Notes: generated by a model not told the origin, from the sequence alone. A DNA stretch of 64,000 nucleotides from Desulfobacteraceae bacterium (GCA_021372635.1 JAJFUA010000443.1:86-64085), one strand, 5' to 3'; shown: positions 16,217-64,000, counted from the first letter of the stretch. A program made the numbers and translations.

Positions 16217-16293
16217 CGGGACGTGGCTCAGCCTGGTAGAGCGCTGCGTTCGGGACGCAGAGGTCGCTGGTTCAAATCCAGTCGTCCCGACCA
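16217..16293 (+). tRNA. tRNA-Pro (anticodon CGG)
   Basis: The 7-bp acceptor stem CGGGACG/CGTCCCG is followed by discriminator A and an encoded CCA. D-arm GCTCAGCCTGGTAGAGC and the T-loop GGTTCAAATCC are present. The anticodon stem CTGCG/CGCAG carries loop TTCGGGA. Confidence 0.93.
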
Positions 16294-53396: not shown

Positions 53397-54602
53397 TCAT
53401 GCCTTTTGATACAACCGGTGCGGTTCGAGCCCGGAATGTCCGAAGGACGGGAGTGAAGGCGGGGCAGGGGTGTGCTGTTCCCCGTAAATGAAGACTCCGG
53501 GGAACAGGGATCCGCTGCAGAAGATTCCCGGCAGCGTCAAAAATTGCCGCTGCCCATAGCGATAGTAGAGTTCATCGTCCAGGGCGGGACCTGCGGAGAC
53601 CTTGTCCTTGAACAGCCTGTACACCCAGGCCTGGTAGATGATGACCACCGGAACGAACGTGAGCGCAACGCCGAGCATGATCTTGAGAGTCAGGGGGCTC
53701 GAAGCCGAGTTGTATATGGTGAGGCTGAATTCGGGACTCAGGCTGGATGGAAGCAGGTTCGGGTAGAGGCCCGCGACGCCGAAGAGGGTGACGCCCACGA
53801 TCAGGGCACTCGACGCGAACCAGGCCCTCCACCAGTGAGATTTCCCGATGTAGACGCGCATCATTACCAGGGAGGCCGCGACCACCAGGGGGATGAGAAC
53901 GATCGGGACGGTGAAGAAAAACGGGTTTTTTAGATAGTTGTCGTATAGATGCGTGGAATACCACGTGGCGGACAGGAACACGACGACCATAACCGCCAGG
54001 GCAACCCACAACTTCTGCGCCATCGACACCGCGCGCTCCTGCAAGGCGCCTTCGGACTTGACCGCAAGCCAGATGGAACCGTGAGTCGTAAACAGGAGGA
54101 CGAACAAGATCCCGCCCAGCAGCCCGTAGGGATTCAGCAGGGTGAAGAGAGATCCGTGGAAGATGCCCGACCCGTCTATGGGAATGCCCTGGAAGATGTT
54201 CGCGAAGGCTACCCCCAGCAGGAGGGCGGGTGCGAAGCTGCCGACGACGAGGCATTTGTCCCAGACGGCTTTCCACCGGGGATCTTCGACCTTGTCCCTG
54301 TATTCGAATGCAACCCCGCGCAGGATGAGAGAGAAAAGAATGAGCATCAGCGCGGAATACAGACTGCTGAACATTACCGCATAGGTGGTGGGAAAAGCGG
54401 CGAACGTCACGCCGCCGGCCGTGATCAGCCAGACCTCGTTGCCGTCCCAGAACGGGCGCATGGTGTCGTAGATCATGCGGCGTTCGCCGTCGTTCCTGGC
54501 AAAGACGGGCATGAGCGTTCCGAGACCGAGATCGAAGCCGTCGAGCATGAAGTAGACAGCCCAGAGGACTCCCCAAAGTATGAACCAGACGGATTCCAGC
54601 AT
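53397..54602 (-). CDS. cydB: Cytochrome bd ubiquinol oxidase subunit II
   Basis: It has the N-terminal WFILWGVLWAVYFMLDGFDLGLG, then WDGNEVWLI. The C-terminus runs about 50 aa past the usual end. Confidence 0.9.
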   Translation of the reverse strand: MLESVWFILWGVLWAVYFMLDGFDLGLGTLMPVFARNDGERRMIYDTMRPFWDGNEVWLITAGGVTFAAFPTTYAVMFSSLYSALMLILFSLILRGVAFEYRDKVEDPRWKAVWDKCLVVGSFAPALLLGVAFANIFQGIPIDGSGIFHGSLFTLLNPYGLLGGILFVLLFTTHGSIWLAVKSEGALQERAVSMAQKLWVALAVMVVVFLSATWYSTHLYDNYLKNPFFFTVPIVLIPLVVAASLVMMRVYIGKSHWWRAWFASSALIVGVTLFGVAGLYPNLLPSSLSPEFSLTIYNSASSPLTLKIMLGVALTFVPVVIIYQAWVYRLFKDKVSAGPALDDELYYRYGQRQFLTLPGIFCSGSLFPGVFIYGEQHTPAPPSLPSFGHSGLEPHRLYQKA

Positions 54603-54615
54603 ATTCGTTTCTCCT

Positions 54616-56007
54616 CTACTTTACAGGGTTTGCGGCGGTTTCGGGAATGGCGTCGCCGGAACCGGGAAGAGATCGCTCCGAGAGAGGCTCTTCAGGCGCA
54701 CTGGGCAACGGGGCGGGTCCCTTCCTGGCGGTGGTCGCAATGAGATAGAAGGCCGCTGCCCCGAGCAGCGAGTACACGATGACGAATGCGGCTAAGGACA
54801 CGGAAACCTGGACGAGGCTGATGGGAGATACGGCATCGGCAGTCTTCATCATGCCGTAGACAACCCACGGCTGGCGGCCGACTTCCGCGAGCGCCCAGCC
54901 AGCCTGTGCCGCCACGTAGGGCAGAGGAATGGCGTAGAGCATGATCTTCAGATACCGGGGGCATTCCAGGAGCCTGTCCCTCCGGTACCATCCATAAGCG
55001 GCTAGAACGAAGATGAGAACGCCCAGTCCCACCATGGTCCGGAAAGCGATGAAAGACAGGGTGACCGGCGGTCGTTCCTCTTTGGGAAAATCCTTCAGCC
55101 CCTTGACGGTGGATTCGAAATCATGGTTCGCCAGCATGCTCAGGGCACCCGGAATGGCTCCAAACTCCAAAAGATTGCGTTCGTTCTTCTCGTCGGGGAT
55201 CACGAGAAGATACTGGGGAGCGGATTGTTTCGTCTCCCAGAGGGATTCCATCGCGGCAAGCTTCGTCGGTTGTACCCGGGATACTTCCGAGGCGTGCATG
55301 TGTCCCTGCAGAATTTCGACCACGGAGAATATCAGGGCAAAGGAGACGGCCAGTCGGAAAGATTTCGTGAAAAAGGAGATGTTCTGATTTCTGAGCAGGT
55401 GATAGGCGCTGATTCCCATCACGAAAAAGGCAGCCAGGATGTACGCAGCGCTCACTGTATGAACGAATTCGTGAATGGCGAAAGGTTGCGTGGCGACGGC
55501 AAGGAAGTCCGTAAGTTCGGCGCGTCCGTTTCGAATCGTGTAGCCCACCGGGTGCTGCATCCATGCATTTGCGATGAGAATCCAGACCGCCGAGAGGTTG
55601 GAGGCGATGGCCACGAGCCAGATGGTTACCGCGTGCGCTTTAGGGGAAAGTCTTTTCCATCCGAGAGCCCAGACGGCGATGAACGTCGATTCCAGGAAAA
55701 ACGCGACCGAAGCCTCGATGGCCAGCAGGGCGCCGAAGATGTCTCCCACATACGTCGAGTAACGCGACCAGTTGGTGCCGAACTGAAATTCCAGGGTGAT
55801 TCCGGTCACAATTCCGATCCCGAAGTTGATGAGGAAAATCTTTCCCCAAAACCGGGCCATTCGCCTGTACTCTTCGTCCCCGATCCGGACGTAACGGGTT
55901 TCCATCAAAGCGACCAGGACCGACAACCCCAGGGTCAGGGGCACAAACAGGAAGTGGAAAAACGTCGCAGCGGCAAACTGCAGTCGTGAGAGCATCAAAA
56001 CGTCCAT
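54616..56007 (-). CDS. cydA: Cytochrome bd ubiquinol oxidase subunit I
   Basis: It begins MLSRLQFAAATFFHFLFVPLTLG, has a Q-loop region and a C-terminal GRQPWVVYG. Confidence 0.93.
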   Translation of the reverse strand: MDVLMLSRLQFAAATFFHFLFVPLTLGLSVLVALMETRYVRIGDEEYRRMARFWGKIFLINFGIGIVTGITLEFQFGTNWSRYSTYVGDIFGALLAIEASVAFFLESTFIAVWALGWKRLSPKAHAVTIWLVAIASNLSAVWILIANAWMQHPVGYTIRNGRAELTDFLAVATQPFAIHEFVHTVSAAYILAAFFVMGISAYHLLRNQNISFFTKSFRLAVSFALIFSVVEILQGHMHASEVSRVQPTKLAAMESLWETKQSAPQYLLVIPDEKNERNLLEFGAIPGALSMLANHDFESTVKGLKDFPKEERPPVTLSFIAFRTMVGLGVLIFVLAAYGWYRRDRLLECPRYLKIMLYAIPLPYVAAQAGWALAEVGRQPWVVYGMMKTADAVSPISLVQVSVSLAAFVIVYSLLGAAAFYLIATTARKGPAPLPSAPEEPLSERSLPGSGDAIPETAANPVK

Positions 56008-56419
56008 AATCTGATCTCCCTATTGGATGATTGGTTTTCATGGCCCGTGGCTGGATAATGTGCCCGCATTAAGAAAACGACTGTTTTAGCCCTGGTCAAG
56101 ATGAGCAAATGAGAATTCATCGCCCGTTCCGCTTTTATATGGCAGGATTCATTCCGGGGTGATTTTACAGAGAGCGGCCGCTAGGCTCTTGGAAATGCAA
56201 ATGATTATACTTTAGAGCACTCATTTCGGAGAATTTTCACGCCGGAATTTCGAGACAAATGTGAGACAGTGGACCCGGTCCGCACAAGCTCAGCGGGGAA
56301 ACACGCAGGCTTTGGGCTCAACGAGGGCTTCAGGCAGGAGTCACGATTTTCGGTTTTTCTGAAATGATCAATGCGACACATATGAATTCGAGATATGCCG
56401 CCACCTTTAGAAGGAACCG

Positions 56420-59284
56420 TCAGGGTGCAAGGATGAGCCCGGGAGGAAGGGATTCGCCGAAGATCCAGTCCTCCTCCTGCCGCAGAAGCTCCGTATCCGG
56501 GTTGGTGAGAATGTTTCTGTAACGCTCTGGATGGGGCAGCGTGCCCAGCCATTCAAAAAGGCGGTCCCTGTCGGCATGGGGAAGGTCTCTGACACGGTCC
56601 CCCGTATAGCGTGCCATCTGGACCAGGGCATGCCCCAACGGTTCCGAGGGGGGAATGTCCAGGTCCAGGAGAGCGTTGAGCCAGTGGGATGCCTCGTCGC
56701 TCGGAATCACCTGGTCCAGGGGGCCGTACAAGGTATGCCGCGAGGCAAAACGGCTCAAAGCCCAGAGTTCCTGTGCTTTCGGACGGCCCTTTAGGACCTT
56801 TTGCAGGAGCACGCGCCCCAGAGCGACTTTCGTTTCGGACGGCAGCCGCTCGAAATTGGCCAGGGCCATCCAGAGTTCCAGGTCCTCCTGGGGACTGAGC
56901 GGTTTGAAAGGGTTCCGGGATCCTTTTCTTTTTTTCTTGTCGTCTGCGGGCAGGATCGACGAGATCTGCTGAACGATATGTTTCTGGTGGCCTGCGGACA
57001 GTCCTCCGGCTATGCGTCTCCAGAAGATCCACCATTCCGATCTTCCCTGCACCTGCCTGGGAAACTGAAGACCGGCCGGGTAGAGTTTCCAGAGTTCCCT
57101 GATCCGCCATTCGTCCAGCGGGTCCCCGAAACCGGGCCGCAGGCAGAAGCCGAGCAGGTTGAACCACCTGGACTCATGCTGTGGCGACACCAGCCGTCCC
57201 TGCCTGCACTCGATGAGGGTGTCCGAAAGGTTCCTGACGAGGGGTGTGGACCACTTTTCCTTCGGCAGATCGAGCAGCGCCGCAAGGTCTTTGACGAGCC
57301 CTTCCGGGGGACCGGAGGCGGCACCCCTGGTGAAGACGCCGGAGATTTTCTCCCGGGCCTGATCGATGGTTGCCGTATCCAGGGTTTCGTCTATGTGCGC
57401 AGCGGTTGGGGATTCGGGTTCCTGGCGCACATCGAACTGCAGTTTCCAGGCATGGGCACTCGACTGGGAGCGGCACCAGAGTTCCAGGGTACCGATTTCG
57501 GTCAACCGGACAGCGAGGTTGACGGGGAGTGCCTGGGCAGAGCCCTTTTTCCCGTACCTCAGGGCGGTCCTGATCGGGGGCAGGGAAGTGATTTCCTCTT
57601 CAGACAAGGTTACCACATCGCCCAGACGGTCGCCCAGGCGGGTGCTCGACGTGAACAGATGAAAACCTACCGGCCGATTGGTGAGCACTTCGAAGGACGG
57701 CTGTTCCAGGCGTGTTTCGAATCCCTCCTCCGTTCCCCGCGGGACGAGGCACACCGCGTGATGCGTGCCGTCCTCCGCGCCCGACGCCGCCTCGACGTAG
57801 TAGGCCCGGGGACTTCCCGCACCGACCCTGACCCCTTCGCCCAGGCGCACGCGCCCGTAGTAGGCCGCTCCCACGGCAACGGCGAGTTCCGGGTTCGGAT
57901 TGTCCAGTTCATCGGGAGCCCATTCGCTGCCCGCTTCCCTCAAAAACCAGGATTGAACCACGTCCATGATACGGCTGCGAATTTTGGAAGGCGTCAGGGC
58001 GCCCCCGTTGAAAAGGATGTAATCGGGAAACAGAGCGCTCCGGCCGGTCTCGGCATGCAGCAGCGTCTGAAACCTTCTCCAGAAGGCCGCCAGGTGCCGT
58101 GTGATGGCGGGGTCCTGGACAAACGGGAGGCCGAATTCGGTCAGTCCCGTGCGGCGCACCCCCTGCGGGGCGTCCTCGAGGGAGACGAACGGAAAAAAAC
58201 CGTTCAGGATCATCTCCTCCGCCTGCTCGCGAGTGATGGCAGCCTTCCGGGTATCTCCGATCAGCTTTCTGCCCGAGCCCATGATGGTAACGTCGAAAGA
58301 GGATCTGGCGGAGCCGCCCGGAGACTCGCCGCCGTCCTCCATGAGCGTTTCCTTGGCCTTGCGGCACTGGTGCCAGAGTTGATGCCATTTCTGGGATTCC
58401 AGCTTTCCCACCTGTCCGTAGAGACGCATTTCTATGGAGCGGGCCAGGGCGAGGTCCATGTTGTCGCCGCCCAGCATCAGGTGTTCCCCGACGGCGAGAC
58501 GGTCGAACCGCAGGCCCTTTTCTCCTTCACGAATGGCGATGATGGTGAAGTCCGTCGTGCCGCCGCCCACGTCGCAGACGAGGATGATCTGCCCGGGGCG
58601 CATTTGCGACTGCCATTCGGATTCGTGTCTTGACAGCCAGGCGTAAAAAGCCGCAAGAGGTTCTTCCAGAAGAACGATTTTGGGCAGGCCCGCTTCGCGG
58701 GCGGCCGTGACGGTGAGTTCCCGCGCAACTTCGTCGAAGGATGCGGGGACGGTAAGCACAACGAACTGTTCTTCCAGCAGGAGACCTTCCTGCCGGTGGG
58801 CGATCGTCTCGTTCCAGGACTCGCGCATGTGCTGCAGGTAGCGGGCGCTGGCCGCGACGGGAGAAATCTTATGGACGTTCGCGCCGCCTCCCCACGGGAG
58901 AATGGCGCCGGTTCGGTCGACACCCCCATGCGACAGCCATGATTTTGCAGACGAGACGAGGCGGCCGGGCACGAGGGCTCCCTGTTCGCGTGCCAACTCT
59001 CCGACCACGTAATCACGGGCCGTATCCCAGGGCAGAGCCGTGCTTCCCGGGGCAAGTTCGTAAGGTCCAGGCAGGTAGAGAAAAGAAGGGAGAACGGCCC
59101 GCTTCCCGATTTCACCGGGAGAAGTAAGCTGAAGGATGTTGAAAAAGCGTGGGGCGTTCCCTCCGGCTCCCTCCTCGGAACGGTCTACAAAGGCCAGGGC
59201 GGAATTGGTGGTGCCGAGATCGATCCCGACGACGAAGCGATGGGAGGTCTCATCCGCCGGAAATGCGGGGGGCGTAATGCTCAC
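56420..59284 (-). CDS. Atypical Hsp70-family ATPase with a helical C-terminal extension of about 330 aa (954 aa)
   Basis: It has the actin/Hsp70 motifs VGIDLGTTNS, VPASFD, LLEEPLAAFYAW, VCDVGGGTTDF and LGGDNMDLALA. The GTG start 59284 has AAGGAA 5 nt upstream and lies 12 nt after the previous stop. Confidence 0.85.
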   Translation of the reverse strand: MSITPPAFPADETSHRFVVGIDLGTTNSALAFVDRSEEGAGGNAPRFFNILQLTSPGEIGKRAVLPSFLYLPGPYELAPGSTALPWDTARDYVVGELAREQGALVPGRLVSSAKSWLSHGGVDRTGAILPWGGGANVHKISPVAASARYLQHMRESWNETIAHRQEGLLLEEQFVVLTVPASFDEVARELTVTAAREAGLPKIVLLEEPLAAFYAWLSRHESEWQSQMRPGQIILVCDVGGGTTDFTIIAIREGEKGLRFDRLAVGEHLMLGGDNMDLALARSIEMRLYGQVGKLESQKWHQLWHQCRKAKETLMEDGGESPGGSARSSFDVTIMGSGRKLIGDTRKAAITREQAEEMILNGFFPFVSLEDAPQGVRRTGLTEFGLPFVQDPAITRHLAAFWRRFQTLLHAETGRSALFPDYILFNGGALTPSKIRSRIMDVVQSWFLREAGSEWAPDELDNPNPELAVAVGAAYYGRVRLGEGVRVGAGSPRAYYVEAASGAEDGTHHAVCLVPRGTEEGFETRLEQPSFEVLTNRPVGFHLFTSSTRLGDRLGDVVTLSEEEITSLPPIRTALRYGKKGSAQALPVNLAVRLTEIGTLELWCRSQSSAHAWKLQFDVRQEPESPTAAHIDETLDTATIDQAREKISGVFTRGAASGPPEGLVKDLAALLDLPKEKWSTPLVRNLSDTLIECRQGRLVSPQHESRWFNLLGFCLRPGFGDPLDEWRIRELWKLYPAGLQFPRQVQGRSEWWIFWRRIAGGLSAGHQKHIVQQISSILPADDKKKRKGSRNPFKPLSPQEDLELWMALANFERLPSETKVALGRVLLQKVLKGRPKAQELWALSRFASRHTLYGPLDQVIPSDEASHWLNALLDLDIPPSEPLGHALVQMARYTGDRVRDLPHADRDRLFEWLGTLPHPERYRNILTNPDTELLRQEEDWIFGESLPPGLILAP

Positions 59285-59296
59285 GGATATTCCTTG

Positions 59297-61117
59297 CTAG
59301 TCTTCCTGGCGTTCTCTCAGGTTGAATTCGAGTTTCCAGCGCCTGTCCCCGTCGCGGGCCACGCACCACAGTTCGAGGGTGCCGATTTCAGTGAATCTGC
59401 TCTGGAGCCATATGGGTACGATCGTTCCCCCCTCTTCACCTTCGATCGAGAGGAGTTCGGTATCCATGGCCGCCACGGGGTCGATCTCCCCATGCCAGTC
59501 CTCCACGATCTCTCCCGACCGGTCCTGGCGGCGCGTGCTCGAGGCGAGGAGTTGGAAAACGGCCGGTTCTCCGACGACAAGCCCGAAGTCACGCTCCCTG
59601 ATTTCAGCCCCGGTCCCTTCTTCCATGCCGAAGGGGACCACGCAGAGCGCCTTGATGGGTGTCGGAATCCCGGGCACCACGGGAAGGGAGCTTTCAACAC
59701 CGATATAGTAGGAACGTGCCGCGCCTCCCCGGATGCGGATGCCCCGTCCTGTTCTCGCCAGCCCGTAATAGGCGGCCCCGCGGGCGACGGCGAGATCGAG
59801 GTTTGCCGAGGCGAGTTCCCGGGGAGTCCCGGTCGTCTGCCACCGGCCGAGAACCTCGAGGACCCGGCTGCGGATGGGGTCCGCCTTCATGACCCCGCCG
59901 TTGAACAATACGGCGGAAGGCTGGACGGAGCCGGCATCGCTCTGGAATGCGACCGATTCGCTCTGTCGGCCCAGAAAGCGCGCCAGGTGCCGTGTCACCG
60001 CGGGGTCCCGCTCGTAGGGAAGACCCATTTCACGCATGCCGACCCTCGGACGGTCCTCCGGGTAGTCGGTGCGGGCGACGCTCGGGAAAAATCCGTCCAG
60101 CAGGGTGCTTTCCAGCTCTGTCCGGGTCAGTTCCGTTCGGACGGTTCCGCCGATGAGCGACGAACTGCGCCCGAGAACGACCACAGGCTCCGCTTCGATG
60201 CTACTGTCGGCAAGGAGCCGTTCCTTGGCGACACGGCAGTTCTGCCAGAGGCCGCGAAACTGCCAGGCATCCAGCCTGGTCCCCCTGGAGGCCAGTTTTG
60301 CCTGGAGGAGATAGGCGAGGGCCAGGTCCATGTTGTCACCGCCGAGGAGCACGTGATCGCCGACCGCAATGCGTCTGAGGGTCAGTTCTCCGTCTTCATC
60401 GGTTACCTGGATGAGGCTGAAATCCGTTGTGCCTCCACCGACGTCGCAGACAAGGATCGACTCCCCGACGCGCACCTCTTTCCGCCAGGCGTCTCCCATG
60501 AACTCGATCCAGGCATAAAAGGCGGCCTGCGGTTCTTCAAGAAGGGTAACGTTTTCGAATCCGGCAGACCGGGCGGCCTTGACGGTGAGTTCCCTTGCCA
60601 CCGCATCGAAAGAAGCCGGGACCGTCAGGTAAATGTCCTGAATTTCCAATACGGCGTCGGGGTCCCCGTCCGCCATGGCATGGTTCCAGCCGTCCCGCAG
60701 GTGCTGCAGGAAAAGGGCGGAGGCTTCCACGGGGGAGATTTTGCGCGAATCGGGAGGACTGTCCCAGGGAAGCACGGGTGCGGTCCTGTCGATCCCGGTG
60801 TGACTGAGCCACGACTTGGCTGAGGATACGAGGCGATTCGGCAGTTCCGCTCCTCGCCTCCGGGCAAACTCGCCGACGGCAAAATCCGCCTCCGGCTTCC
60901 AGGGAAGAGCGATGCTTCCCTGAGGAACGTCGTGCGGACCGGGCAGGAAGATAAAAGACGGCAGAAGAGCTCCGGCGCTCACTTCGCCGGGACCAACCAC
61001 CTGCGGCACCGGGAAGATCCGGATGCTCCGCTCGGTTCCCTCCTGCGGAACCGACTCCGTATAGGCCAGGGCGCAGTGTGTCGTTCCGAGGTCGATGCCT
61101 ATGATGTATTTGGGCAT
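59297..61117 (-). CDS. Atypical Hsp70-family ATPase (606 aa), paralogous to the downstream gene
   Basis: It has IGIDLGTTHC, VSSAKSWLSH, VPASFD, LLEEPQAAFYAW, VCDVGGGTTDF and LGGDNMDLALA. It shares the C-terminal block TEIGTLELWC...W.L.F with the 954-aa protein. ATG 61117 is preceded by GGAGAAGGAA. Confidence 0.88.
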   Translation of the reverse strand: MPKYIIGIDLGTTHCALAYTESVPQEGTERSIRIFPVPQVVGPGEVSAGALLPSFIFLPGPHDVPQGSIALPWKPEADFAVGEFARRRGAELPNRLVSSAKSWLSHTGIDRTAPVLPWDSPPDSRKISPVEASALFLQHLRDGWNHAMADGDPDAVLEIQDIYLTVPASFDAVARELTVKAARSAGFENVTLLEEPQAAFYAWIEFMGDAWRKEVRVGESILVCDVGGGTTDFSLIQVTDEDGELTLRRIAVGDHVLLGGDNMDLALAYLLQAKLASRGTRLDAWQFRGLWQNCRVAKERLLADSSIEAEPVVVLGRSSSLIGGTVRTELTRTELESTLLDGFFPSVARTDYPEDRPRVGMREMGLPYERDPAVTRHLARFLGRQSESVAFQSDAGSVQPSAVLFNGGVMKADPIRSRVLEVLGRWQTTGTPRELASANLDLAVARGAAYYGLARTGRGIRIRGGAARSYYIGVESSLPVVPGIPTPIKALCVVPFGMEEGTGAEIRERDFGLVVGEPAVFQLLASSTRRQDRSGEIVEDWHGEIDPVAAMDTELLSIEGEEGGTIVPIWLQSRFTEIGTLELWCVARDGDRRWKLEFNLRERQED

Positions 61118-61164
61118 GCTCAAGTTCCTTCTCCCGTATTCAGGATGGCCGGCATTGCGATGGA

Positions 61165-61968
61165 TCAGGGCTGTTCGCCGATTTCCACTTCAGCGGGAGC
61201 CAGTATCCAGTCTTTTTTCTGCTGTTGCAGAGGTTGCGGCAGATTGACGCTGGCCACCCGCCATCCCCGATGACGCAGGATGCCTTTGAAAGGGGGATCG
61301 CCCGAGACGTCTCCCGTAAGCCGGATAGCCCGCGAGTCGAAGCCCGGCGGGATGGAGACCTCGAAGCCTTCCTGCTGCTCGAAAACCGGCTTCAGTTCGA
61401 CATGCTCCGCCAGGACCGTGTTGCAGCCCTGGTGCACGCTCCTCACGGCGGCGCCTATCTGCGCGTCTTCATAGTTGGAAAGATCTTCCTGAAGAAAATC
61501 GATCAACCGCCCGTCGCGCTGCAATAGCGCCAGCATCTGGACGGCCGGCTGCGGGGACAATTCCTGGACCTCCTGCCTGGCAGGGGCCTGGGGCTTTCTC
61601 TCCTCTTTTTGTGCCGGCCGGGCGGCTGCGCGTCCTATGGAGGACTGTTCGGCCTGCGCCCTGTCGATGGCGCGCCGGCCCTGGAAGGCCAGGCTGATCC
61701 ACAGGAACAGAGTGACGAGGGCGGCTATGCCGAAAACAGCCGACGGCAGGTACCCTTTGGCCTGGGACAGAAAAACGTGCAGGTTGAGCAACGCGGCCTG
61801 CACTTCTTCCGGAAAGGTCCCCGGTCCGCTCTTCAGAAGCGGGGCGACCCACTGGTTGACGGCACTGAAGGTCCGATCGGCCATAAAGAAAAAAGCGCCC
61901 GCCAGGACCGCATTCCAGAAAAAACATGTAAACAAGGACTGAAGGGTCCAGGTCTTTTTCAATTGCAT
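61165..61968 (-). CDS. Membrane-anchored DUF2760-like protein
   Basis: It has two N-terminal TM helices and a charged linker. The C-terminal LLQRDGRLIDFLQEDLSNYEDAQIGAAVRSVH matches DUF2760 as I recall it. ATG 61968 (MQLKK) has AAGGAG 6 nt upstream, and the longer ORF start would lie inside the predicted promoter. Confidence 0.75.
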   Translation of the reverse strand: MQLKKTWTLQSLFTCFFWNAVLAGAFFFMADRTFSAVNQWVAPLLKSGPGTFPEEVQAALLNLHVFLSQAKGYLPSAVFGIAALVTLFLWISLAFQGRRAIDRAQAEQSSIGRAAARPAQKEERKPQAPARQEVQELSPQPAVQMLALLQRDGRLIDFLQEDLSNYEDAQIGAAVRSVHQGCNTVLAEHVELKPVFEQQEGFEVSIPPGFDSRAIRLTGDVSGDPPFKGILRHRGWRVASVNLPQPLQQQKKDWILAPAEVEIGEQP

Positions 61969-62017
61969 GGTTTGCTCCTTTGCAGACTGCGTTGCGGCAT
62001 CTGTGGCGACTTTACTC

Positions 62018-62046
62018 ATAATGACCACGATTCCGTCGTGTTACAA
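62018..62046 (-). promoter_or_regulatory. Sigma70-like promoter candidate for the DUF2760-Hsp70-Hsp70 operon
   Basis: The minus strand reads TTGTAA, a 17-nt spacer, then CATTAT, about 50 nt upstream of ATG 61968. Confidence 0.3.
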
Positions 62047-62458
62047 GCCTAAAGCGACACAATACCATTCGGCAGGATAACGTCGAAGACAAGATCCGTG
62101 AACCCGTTCGAGAACCGCGGCATCGGACCGCAAGCGGGATATACGCATCGGAGAACGATCTCGCTCCCTCACGGATCGTCCTTCGGGATTCGGCGTACAC
62201 CGTACAGCATGGCTTTCTGCAACAATTCATGCGGGATGGCAAGGGCTAATTTGGGAAGACGCCCGCTGCAACACCCTGCCGGCGGCAGCGCACAGGACGG
62301 GAAATGCGGGCAACGGGCCATCGGACGCTCTCCCGAGGCAAAGGAAGCGGCGCTCCGGCAGATTGGTTCGTCTCCGGGAGAAAATCAGAAGCCCGCCTTG
62401 GACGTTTCAGGGACAGGGTTTCTTCATGGCGCAGTTTCCTGACCGAGTCGGCATTCCG

Positions 62459-63424
62459 TCACCGTTCGGTGCCTTTCACCCGGCGCATCAAATCCTCTGC
62501 GACCTCGATCGTTTTCGCTTCGAGCGATCGTCCGATATTGCCCCTTCGGGCGAGGAGCGCCAGTTTCTCCCTGTCGATGACCTGAGGGGGTTCGCCCGCA
62601 CGGCGCACGACGTCGATTTCCAGGTCGAGATACCTTGCCCCGAAGGGATAGAGTTCCACCGGAGTATTCACATTGTAGTATTCTCCGATGAGCTTTCCCC
62701 CCTTGCTGAAATACGAATGCTTTATGTACCAGAGGCCTTCCTGGACTTCCGTGATGCAGTAGTCGCCCTGCTGGATCGGAAGATCCAGCCCGTCGTAGCG
62801 CCCGTGATAAAAGGCTCGTTTGAAGGCGATCCGCGAATCGTCCATCGCCACGAGAATCCCTTCCCTGGGTCGCATCGCCTTTCCGGAAGGTCTCATGTGT
62901 TCCAGCTTCACCGTTCCCTGCTTTTCCAGTGGATGAAGAATCGTCCCGGCAAAAAGCTGCCTTTCGATGTCCAACTTCTTATCCGGGTGATTTTTCAAGT
63001 AGATTTCCGCATTCTCCAGGGCCTTGCTGTCGATGATGCGCAACCGGTGGTGGGCCGACACCGTAGGCATTACGGAGAGGCGGAGTTCATCGAGCACGCG
63101 TTTCGATTCTCCGGGAAATTCGACCAGCGCCGTTACGAGCGCATCGTTCGATTCAGCGGCATCCGATTCCACAAGAGTCGCATCGAGAAGCCTCTCCTGG
63201 ATGAACGTGAGAAACTGGCAGACCTTTTCCGGCGGGCCGAGCAGTTCGATTCCCTGCAGATCCTGGCGGTCCTGGACCAAAATTTCGAATGATTCGTCAA
63301 CCGGTTCCATGGAAAAACGCTCGCGGATGCGGGCTGAGGGCTCCACGACGGTGTATCCCGCGTCCAGCACCAATTTTGTGAGGGCCGTGCTGTAAATGCT
63401 GCGTATCTTTATGCGCGTACTCAT
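62459..63424 (-). CDS. FAU-1-like protein (RNase E/G-like N-terminus + DUF402 domain)
   Basis: The N-terminal IKIRSIYSTALTKLVLDAGYTVVEPS resembles archaeal FAU-1 N-termini. The C-terminal half (GEYYNVNTPVE....YLDLEIDV) looks like DUF402. GGGAGA precedes ATG 63424, which lies 28 nt after the rtcA stop. Confidence 0.65.
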   Translation of the reverse strand: MSTRIKIRSIYSTALTKLVLDAGYTVVEPSARIRERFSMEPVDESFEILVQDRQDLQGIELLGPPEKVCQFLTFIQERLLDATLVESDAAESNDALVTALVEFPGESKRVLDELRLSVMPTVSAHHRLRIIDSKALENAEIYLKNHPDKKLDIERQLFAGTILHPLEKQGTVKLEHMRPSGKAMRPREGILVAMDDSRIAFKRAFYHGRYDGLDLPIQQGDYCITEVQEGLWYIKHSYFSKGGKLIGEYYNVNTPVELYPFGARYLDLEIDVVRRAGEPPQVIDREKLALLARRGNIGRSLEAKTIEVAEDLMRRVKGTER

Positions 63425-63452
63425 GGCTCAAGTCTCCCGTAAGGAAGGGTAC

Positions 63453-64000
63453 TCACGAAGGCCGAAACCCGATGCCGTCTATCCGGAGCAGATTGTCGTC
63501 GCATCTGCTTTTTGCGCCCAGAATACTCTCTATAAGCCACAAGTTGGATTCCACGTGGTCGGTAACCCGCGGGATGCGGTATTCCGTAGGGCCGGCAGCC
63601 AGCGAAGCAAACAGGATCAGTTGATCCGCAAGGTGGCGGTCGGTGGTCGCGCCGCTCTCCATATCCTCAAGAAGGCATTGCACCACGTGGTCCGCAATGT
63701 CTTCCGAACGCCTGCGCGGCTTTCCGGCCCGGTCGGAACCGATCAGGCATCCTGTGTCCGTTTCGGCCCAGAGAAGAAGCGCGGCTCCCTTCTGGGGGGC
63801 CGAATCGTCATCCACAACCCGTATCAGCGGATCATATCCATGAGGCTGAAGGCTGCGCCGGGACTGTTCGGCCATTCGCCGGGCCACCTGTTCCCTCACA
63901 AGGTGCGAAGCCAGGGCAACGCCGTGGATTGCCTTCACCGTTCCCTGTGCAGGCAACCGAATGCCTGCAAGAGCGTCCCGCCCCGGATGCACATCCACCA
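63453..64000 (-). CDS. rtcA: RNA 3'-terminal phosphate cyclase, C-terminal part (gene continues beyond the window)
   Basis: It has HLADQLILFASLAAGPTEYRIPRVTDHVESNLWLIE and an upstream insert-domain region. The ORF is open at the window edge. Confidence 0.85.
   Translation of the reverse strand, partial: VDVHPGRDALAGIRLPAQGTVKAIHGVALASHLVREQVARRMAEQSRRSLQPHGYDPLIRVVDDDSAPQKGAALLLWAETDTGCLIGSDRAGKPRRRSEDIADHVVQCLLEDMESGATTDRHLADQLILFASLAAGPTEYRIPRVTDHVESNLWLIESILGAKSRCDDNLLRIDGIGFRPS

Follow-up and report, generated by a model that had tools for sequence, protein, structure and literature searches.

How might a bacterium drive and localize Hsp70 ATPases that are encoded apart from the usual co-chaperones? 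Hsp70 action normally depends on a J-protein to set off ATP hydrolysis and on an exchange factor to return the ATPase to its starting state. Positions 56420-62046 of the window, by which we mean the whole 64,000-nt stretch of Desulfobacteraceae bacterium DNA to which the coordinates below refer unless a locus or replicon is named, carry a gene for a DUF2760 membrane protein followed by genes for two paralogous Hsp70s, which we name HspA and HspB. This trio has neither a J-protein nor an exchange-factor gene nearby, yet its conservation across phyla is about that expected of a housekeeping chaperone. We favor the reading that the three genes form one operon and that their products work together on the cytoplasmic side of the inner membrane as a non-canonical, self-contained Hsp70 machine, distinct from DnaK/DnaJ/GrpE; we give this joint reading a probability of roughly 0.55. 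Calling of open reading frames (ORFs) found three successive, co-oriented frames at 56420-62028 on the minus strand, and the trio spans 56420-61968 when counted from the preferred starts:

61165-61968 (stop codon included), minus strand: gene 1, the DUF2760 protein, 267 amino acids, from ATG 61968; the longest reading frame, 61165-62028, opens at GTG 62028.
59297-61117, minus strand: gene 2, HspA, a lidless Hsp70 of 606 amino acids; ATG 61117 is the most likely start and TTG 61123 the alternative.
56420-59284, minus strand: gene 3, HspB, an Hsp70 of 954 amino acids with a C-terminal DUF3731, from GTG 59284.

To place the trio among other genomes, we scanned one genome per species, which yielded 521 relatives, and kept 80 loci, 66 of which could be assessed for the trio. 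The loci fell into the following classes:

52 loci: DUF2760, HspA and HspB in order on the same strand.
13 loci: DUF2760-HspA, with the contig end too near to judge HspB.
10 loci: DUF2760-HspA, with no HspB within at least 6 kb.
2 loci: DUF2760-HspB, with no HspA.
2 loci: DUF2760 alone.
1 locus: DUF2760 alone, where the contig ends.

The full ordered trio was thus present in 52 of the 66 assessable loci and in at least eight phyla, which is in keeping with an earlier note on this DNA that had read the three genes as a dedicated module. DUF2760 was followed by HspA in 75/80 loci. The phyla included Desulfobacterota, Chloroflexota, Planctomycetota (Scalindua), Calditrichota, Bacteroidota (Rhodothermales), Binatota (Binatia), Eisenbacteria, Nitrospirota and Acidobacteriota. 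Pseudomonadota replicons also carried the full trio or the DUF2760-HspA pair: we observed the full trio on a 3.2-Mb Burkholderia cenocepacia replicon and on the conjugative Bradyrhizobium barranii plasmid pCC829_3, where it lies beside trb transfer genes and a MarR regulator, and the DUF2760-HspA pair on the Candidatus Thiodictyon syntrophicum plasmid pTs485 (NZ_CP020372.1 339297-357680). Compared with the window proteins, homologs in other phyla were 51-69% identical for HspA and 44-60% for HspB, and the DUF2760 domain was 52-66% identical in domain-only matches. These identities are about the level expected of housekeeping chaperones and suggest strong purifying selection across phyla.

The junctions between HspA and HspB were often overlapping or no longer than ∼20 nt (for example -4, -1, 0, 3, 5, 9, 12 and 17), and such short or overlapping junctions fit translational coupling of the subunits of a complex. 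In three genomes, HspA and HspB were split by other genes over 1.5-5 kb (L021:12679-16166, L030:12703-17678 and L022:8697-10174), one of the inserts being a coenzyme A-ligase-like ORF of ∼510 amino acids, so that tight HspA-HspB adjacency is usual and not obligatory. In two uncultured Syntrophobacter loci (L002:9902-13829 and L003:10001-13888), the gene directly after DUF2760 is of the HspB type and includes DUF3731, leaving no space for an HspA gene, which is absent.

No fourth conserved gene accompanied the trio. All-against-all clustering of 1192 neighbor ORFs gave no family present in more than 13/80 loci, and a Pfam scan of the 132 nearest-neighbor ORFs returned 152 families, the commonest of them in 7 ORFs. 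DnaJ, GrpE, integrases and defense families were not among the 25 commonest of these 152 families, which were the ones listed. Synteny was evident within the Syntrophobacteraceae, where an RNA cyclase family and DUF402 recurred in 9 loci each and DUF401 in 7; the recurrence of the cyclase and DUF402 families indicates that the locus is stably chromosomal in this lineage. A search of the module against GenBank phage records and IMG/VR viral contigs found no matches, and we rejected a phage or provirus origin on this ground. At the DNA level, blastn found no E. coli counterpart.

The first gene product had been read as two transmembrane helices, a charged linker and a DUF2760 domain, and hydropathy, AlphaFold2 and PF10816 all agree with this layout. 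The protein matched PF10816 (DUF2760) over profile positions 2-124 of 124 with E = 4.6e-51, and its score of 172.3 bits clears the cut-off of 25, so that the assignment withstands the hidden Markov model test. Confidence in the models is given as the predicted local distance difference test (pLDDT):

61879-61935, minus strand: hydrophobic helix 1, residues 12-30 (Kyte-Doolittle 19-residue peak 1.83; AlphaFold2 helix 2-46, pLDDT >90).
61684-61740, minus strand: hydrophobic helix 2, residues 77-95 (Kyte-Doolittle peak 2.39; AlphaFold2 helix 54-113).
61183-61554, minus strand: DUF2760 domain, predicted to be cytoplasmic, residues 139-262 (PF10816; AlphaFold2 alpha+beta, pLDDT 70-94).
61180-61206, minus strand: C-terminal tail ILAPAEVEI, residues 255-263, with the motif [IV][VIL]APAEVE[IV] (81-sequence alignment; low pLDDT).

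In the AlphaFold2 model (pLDDT 81), a long hairpin of helices is followed by a charged, disordered linker (114-139) and an alpha+beta domain (140-245), after which the chain ends in a tail with little order. There are two basic residues before helix 1, three in the loop and nine (K+R) after helix 2, and this charge distribution points to an N-in/C-in hairpin that would place the DUF2760 domain in the cytoplasm. Two N-terminal hydrophobic segments were found in 70/80 DUF2760 proteins and at least one in 79/80, even where the anchor sequences were dissimilar. The predicted membrane anchor is therefore a conserved feature of the family, in keeping with the membrane tether that the earlier note had proposed.

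The tail is near-invariant. Among 81 sequences from many phyla, A259 and E262 were each kept in 81/81, E260 in 80/81 and P258 in 64/81, and the AE.E core was present in 80 sequences, in 76 of them at 1-5 residues from the C-terminus. A variable stretch of some 10 residues precedes the APAEVE peptide, which resembles a short linear docking motif. We also observed that the tail was retained in loci with only HspA or only HspB, which favors a partner surface common to both paralogues.

The same tail invites a different interpretation, in which DUF2760 is a single dedicated client, or a membrane signaling protein set by Hsp70 binding, and the tail is its recognition peptide. The logic is that of IscU, whose LPPVK motif is recognized by HscA, and of sigma-32, a client of DnaK. 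Near-invariant in sequence, with little structure and a hydrophobic core (I/V-V/L/I-A-P-A), the tail does resemble a peptide ligand of the Hsp70 cleft; it is kept whether the neighboring ATPase is HspA or HspB, and no protein other than DUF2760 accompanies the ATPases consistently. However, the tail is flanked by acidic residues, whereas classical DnaK-binding peptides have basic flanks. The periplasmic loop between the helices varies in length and sequence across phyla, which argues against a role in periplasmic sensing, and DUF2760 has no recognizable output domain. We consider the client or sensor model unlikely, and still the main rival to the proposed adaptor role; the data are compatible with both.

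An exhaustive search for DUF2760 returned 1825 clusters at 50% identity. Among the best 150 of these, the domain always lay at or near the C-terminal end of proteins of 123-316 amino acids and was never fused to Hsp70. We found no significant sequence match between DUF2760 and solved structures, and Foldseek gave no PDB fold match with E <0.5, its matches being driven by the long helical hairpin. DUF2760 was also considered as a J-domain and rejected: Pfam found only PF10816, hhalign against the E. coli DnaJ J-domain gave a probability of 0.4%, and an HPD motif was not among the conserved DUF2760 residues.

Both large proteins matched PF00012 (Hsp70), scoring 60.6 and 63.3 bits where the cut-off is 20.6, and HspB additionally matched PF12531 (DUF3731, described as "DNA-K related protein") over profile positions 1-248 of 248 (E = 6.6e-87, 291.9 bits against a cut-off of 25). 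Their parts are:

59750-61117, minus strand: HspA nucleotide-binding domain, approximately residues 1-456.
59309-59722, minus strand: HspA substrate-binding beta domain, approximately residues 466-603.
57842-59284, minus strand: HspB nucleotide-binding domain, approximately residues 1-481.
57431-57805, minus strand: HspB substrate-binding beta-sandwich, residues 494-618 (AlphaFold2 and Foldseek).
56459-57376, minus strand: HspB helical solenoid, residues 637-942 (AlphaFold2).
56429-57187, minus strand: HspB DUF3731 (PF12531) region, residues 700-952 (Pfam), which the model renders as an armadillo/HEAT-like alpha-solenoid.

HspA and HspB are 44% identical over 616 residues, an alignment that covers all of HspA, beta domain included. 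The Hsp70 nucleotide-binding motifs that the earlier note had pointed out in both proteins proved to be about 100% conserved among 66 HspA and 48 HspB orthologues. In the same set, the equivalents of DnaK D8/T11/T12, K70, E171, D194 and T199, the last being T230 in HspA and T243 in HspB, were kept at 97-100% and the LGGDNMD and NGG motifs were likewise conserved; the HspB orthologue profile aligns to the DnaK nucleotide-binding domain. With the catalytic residues conserved, both paralogues look like active ATPases, as far as sequence can tell.

The block that follows the ATPase and ends in TEIGTLELWC is indeed common to HspA and HspB, as had been claimed, but its description as non-DnaK-like was wrong. 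Because the modeled beta-sandwich best matches the substrate-binding domains of DnaK, BiP and human Hsp70 in the PDB (Foldseek E = 6e-4, probability 1.0), the block is an Hsp70 substrate-binding beta domain. In the AlphaFold2 model of HspB residues 480-954 (pLDDT 85.8, predicted template modeling score 0.83), this sandwich is followed by an alpha-solenoid of ∼300 residues, which corresponds to the helical C-terminal addition noticed earlier. The solenoid matched designed armadillo repeats and importin-alpha with E = 3.5e-3 to 5.8e-3 and query template modeling scores of 0.27-0.33; on the model, DUF3731 is an armadillo/HEAT-like solenoid.

The two proteins depart from DnaK at several points. 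The canonical alpha-helical lid is absent: HspA ends a few residues past the beta domain, and in HspB the solenoid occupies the lid position. The VLLLD linker of DnaK is replaced by G[IV]R[IV], as G-R-G-I-R-I-R in HspA and G-x-G-V-R-V-G in HspB. At the position aligned with DnaK R167, a J-domain contact, HspB has V and HspA has T, and N170 is replaced by an invariant E. NCBIfam models of DnaK (TIGR02350 and NF001413) scored 58-60 bits against cut-offs of 648-823, and those of HscA (TIGR01991 and NF003520), the best NCBIfam matches, scored 74-92 bits against cut-offs of 620-709. By these profiles, HspA and HspB are not canonical DnaK or HscA, although they might still use a distant DnaJ or GrpE.

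These results bear on a further alternative, that HspA and HspB are extra DnaK copies working with the housekeeping DnaJ and GrpE, and that the adjacency of DUF2760 is incidental. Each protein has the PF00012 match, the catalytic residues and the substrate-binding beta domain that such a copy would need, and according to a 2026 review many bacteria have several DnaK-like genes. This explanation nonetheless appears improbable to us. It does not account for a DUF2760 linkage conserved across at least eight phyla, for NCBIfam scores of 58-92 bits against cut-offs of 620-823, which set the pair apart from the housekeeping DnaK as the earlier note had argued, or for a lid that is absent or replaced, a linker that is not conserved and a changed R167 position. 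A filament-forming ATPase of the MreB or ParM type, with DUF2760 as its membrane anchor, would explain weak matches of both proteins to MreB_Mbl (PF06723) and to the BeeR and MreB NCBIfam models. However, the MreB_Mbl matches reached 26.9 and 25.7 bits against a gathering cut-off of 27 and covered only the ATPase core shared by actin and Hsp70, and both proteins have an Hsp70 substrate-binding domain and the Hsp70-specific catalytic Lys, making an actin-like filament the least credible of the explanations weighed here, with very little probability.

The solenoid also raised the question of a role in conflict or defense. CnuD (or CnuCD) of type III CoCoNuT has been described as an Hsp70-like nucleotide- and substrate-binding unit followed by HEAT-like repeats, linked to McrB-like GTPases (CnuB) and McrC homologs, and its nucleotide-binding motifs were described as degenerate. 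Compared by architecture, HspB has the same domain layout, and an anti-phage or anti-plasmid system in which HspB resembles CnuD could be envisaged. The patchy distribution among phyla suggests horizontal transfer, one trio lies on the conjugative Bradyrhizobium plasmid, and on pTs485 the DUF2760-HspA pair sits amid the anti-phage-annotated DUF3780 and DUF1156 and a PLD-like protein, together with VapC and a TIR protein, the only such context that we saw. Even so, no McrB/McrC homolog, nuclease or other effector was recurrently linked to the genes in the 80 loci, and HspA and HspB keep their catalytic motifs intact, unlike CnuD as described. PADLOC-DB v2.0.0 gave no match to the DUF2760 protein, and the Hsp70s gave only partial matches to the candidate ATPase PDC-M61B (E = 1.6e-4 and 3.5e-4). 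The 44-69% identity across phyla is much above what is usual for defense genes, the locus is syntenic within the Syntrophobacteraceae, the chromosomal contexts are ordinary, and the phage records and viral contigs were without matches, as stated above. We regard a defense function as quite improbable.

Returning to the locus itself, the junctions and ribosome binding sites are as the earlier note described them: 47 nt separate DUF2760 from HspA (61118-61164) and 12 nt separate HspA from HspB (59285-59296), and a suitably spaced purine-rich box (AAGGAG, GAAGGA or AAGGA) precedes each start. For the DUF2760 gene, an AAGGAG box lies 6 nt upstream of ATG 61968, 16/16 aligned homologs begin at the equivalent Met, and nearly all database matches (44-94% identity, the best at 94%) span 99-100% of the query counted from this Met; for these three reasons we take ATG 61968 as the most likely start. 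A promoter had been proposed upstream:

62018-62046, minus strand: weak promoter candidate read from the sequence, TTGTAA (62046-62041), a 17-nt spacer and CATTAT (62023-62018).

The elements lie where they had been placed, but their status as a promoter found no support: they match the sigma-70 consensus at 8/12 positions, no better than chance, and a promoter scan of 55900-62600 called none (1.1 expected by chance). The 430-nt gap upstream of gene 1 leaves room for a promoter. Terminator-like sites near the operon were no commoner than in shuffled sequence, and Rfam gave no match in the operon or its surroundings; a plus-strand tRNA gene (16217-16290) is all that reached gathering score anywhere in the window.

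The flanking genes on the same strand encode a DUF402 protein and an RNA 3'-phosphate cyclase upstream (within 62459-63998) and cydA and cydB downstream (within 53397-56419, a stretch that includes a 412-nt untranslated gap between HspB and cydAB). None of these flanking genes encodes a J-domain protein or GrpE, in agreement with what had been observed earlier. Two plus-strand ORFs, 56801-58633 (610 amino acids) and 59240-60823 (527 amino acids), run antisense to the two Hsp70 genes and most likely reflect the high local G+C content (59-63%) rather than real genes.

A full-text literature search found no paper naming DUF2760, DUF3731, PF10816, PF12531 or their InterPro numbers, and none assigning a function to DUF2760. 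The 2026 review calls bacterial DnaK derivatives besides HscA and HscC unexplored "dark matter" and proposes Hsp110-like co-chaperone roles for them. A probable counterpart nonetheless appears in published expression work on Vibrio cholerae. VC1373-VC1375 is a three-gene operon with two adjacent "DnaK-related protein" genes and VC1375; its layout is trio-like, the Pfam description of DUF3731 is similarly worded, and, judged by annotation and layout, it probably represents the module described here. Published data on it concern expression: the quorum-sensing regulator HapR directly activates the VC1375 promoter, a screen for biofilm-repressed genes picked up the operon, and VC1374 changed by log2 -2.7 between the wild type and a vc1639 mutant in a study of two-component-system mutants. 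A search seeded with a gammaproteobacterial DUF2760 protein and aimed at VC1375 gave only Chromatiaceae-like proteins among its best 120 matches. The Myxococcus stk locus, considered as a possible match, was rejected, StkB being an SCP2-like protein and StkC a small PhaE-like protein.

We reasoned that the module might work as follows. The gene 1 product would be anchored in the membrane by a hairpin of helices, with its two termini on the cytoplasmic side and a disordered charged linker leading to the DUF2760 domain. DUF2760 would serve as a dedicated membrane tether and regulator, in the role that a J-protein has for DnaK or DjlC for HscC; its domain would make the contact, and its C-terminal tail would be offered to a peptide-binding cleft common to HspA and HspB. 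The two ATPases would act as a pair, in which the larger HspB may contribute nucleotide exchange or a scaffold, much as Hsp110 assists Hsp70 and Ssz1 assists Ssb, and this pairing together with DUF2760 would make GrpE and DnaJ dispensable. The module would use ATP to remodel a membrane-proximal target, possibly DUF2760 itself. We infer protein remodeling by the module, with DUF2760 as a co-factor and not a client.

Several points weigh against this self-contained membrane machine. The 10 loci that lack HspB and the 2 that lack HspA speak against a universal obligate pair, barring a copy of the missing gene elsewhere in those genomes. DUF2760 resembles neither a J-domain nor a solved fold, and its role as an adaptor is argued from gene linkage. 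Physical contact among the three proteins, a division of labor between the ATPases and the nature of their client are likewise inferred, and the expression data are confined to the probable V. cholerae counterpart, likened to the trio by annotation and layout. On balance, the interpretation offered in the earlier note is supported: the triad is conserved, the DUF2760 assignment holds, and the literature search found no function assigned to this three-gene module.

What is new here is an Hsp70 system in which a non-canonical, membrane-anchored partner and a second Hsp70 appear to replace the usual co-chaperones, two of its domains being catalogued as DUFs. If the three proteins work together, they would represent a new way to drive and localize Hsp70, possibly a bacterial analog of Hsp70-Hsp110. 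A more specific version of the proposal is that two Hsp70s work without a J-protein or GrpE, HspB being an Hsp110-like exchanger or scaffold for the lidless HspA, and DUF2760 representing a new class of activator and tether that acts through a new fold and the APAEVE peptide. We put this version forward tentatively, as a rather unlikely one in its entirety; if true, the Hsp70-Hsp110 partnership would have a precedent in bacteria, and Hsp70 co-chaperones would gain a third type. Tractable hosts are at hand, since B. cenocepacia carries the module and V. cholerae probably does (VC1373-1375). For annotation purposes, both DUF2760 and DUF3731 can now be entered as components of a single conserved Hsp70 module.

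Among known systems, the closest in logic is HscA-HscB-IscU of Fe-S cluster assembly. There, too, a specialized Hsp70 is encoded beside a dedicated partner, the partner has a short invariant motif (LPPVK in IscU, [IV][VIL]APAEVE[IV] here), and GrpE is not required, as we propose for the trio. The window Hsp70s are not HscA orthologues, given their 74-92 bits against 620-709, and the trio differs further in having two Hsp70 paralogues and a membrane-anchored partner, with no J-type HscB or isc genes nearby. E. coli HscC is a non-housekeeping Hsp70 with a shortened lid, encoded beside its own J-proteins DjlB and DjlC, of which DjlC is membrane-anchored; DjlB and DjlC have J-domains, whereas DUF2760 does not. 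The eukaryotic Hsp70-Hsp110 pair and the Ssz1-Ssb pair of the ribosome-associated complex resemble the trio in pairing paralogous ATPases, the larger and C-terminally elaborated one being the exchanger or scaffold, as proposed here for HspB. In contrast to those pairs, both window paralogues keep all catalytic residues, and HspB carries, beyond its beta domain, an armadillo/HEAT-like solenoid rather than an Hsp110-type insertion and lid. By analogy, the gene pairing and the short junctions suggest that HspB could be an exchange factor of the Hsp110/Grp170 type.

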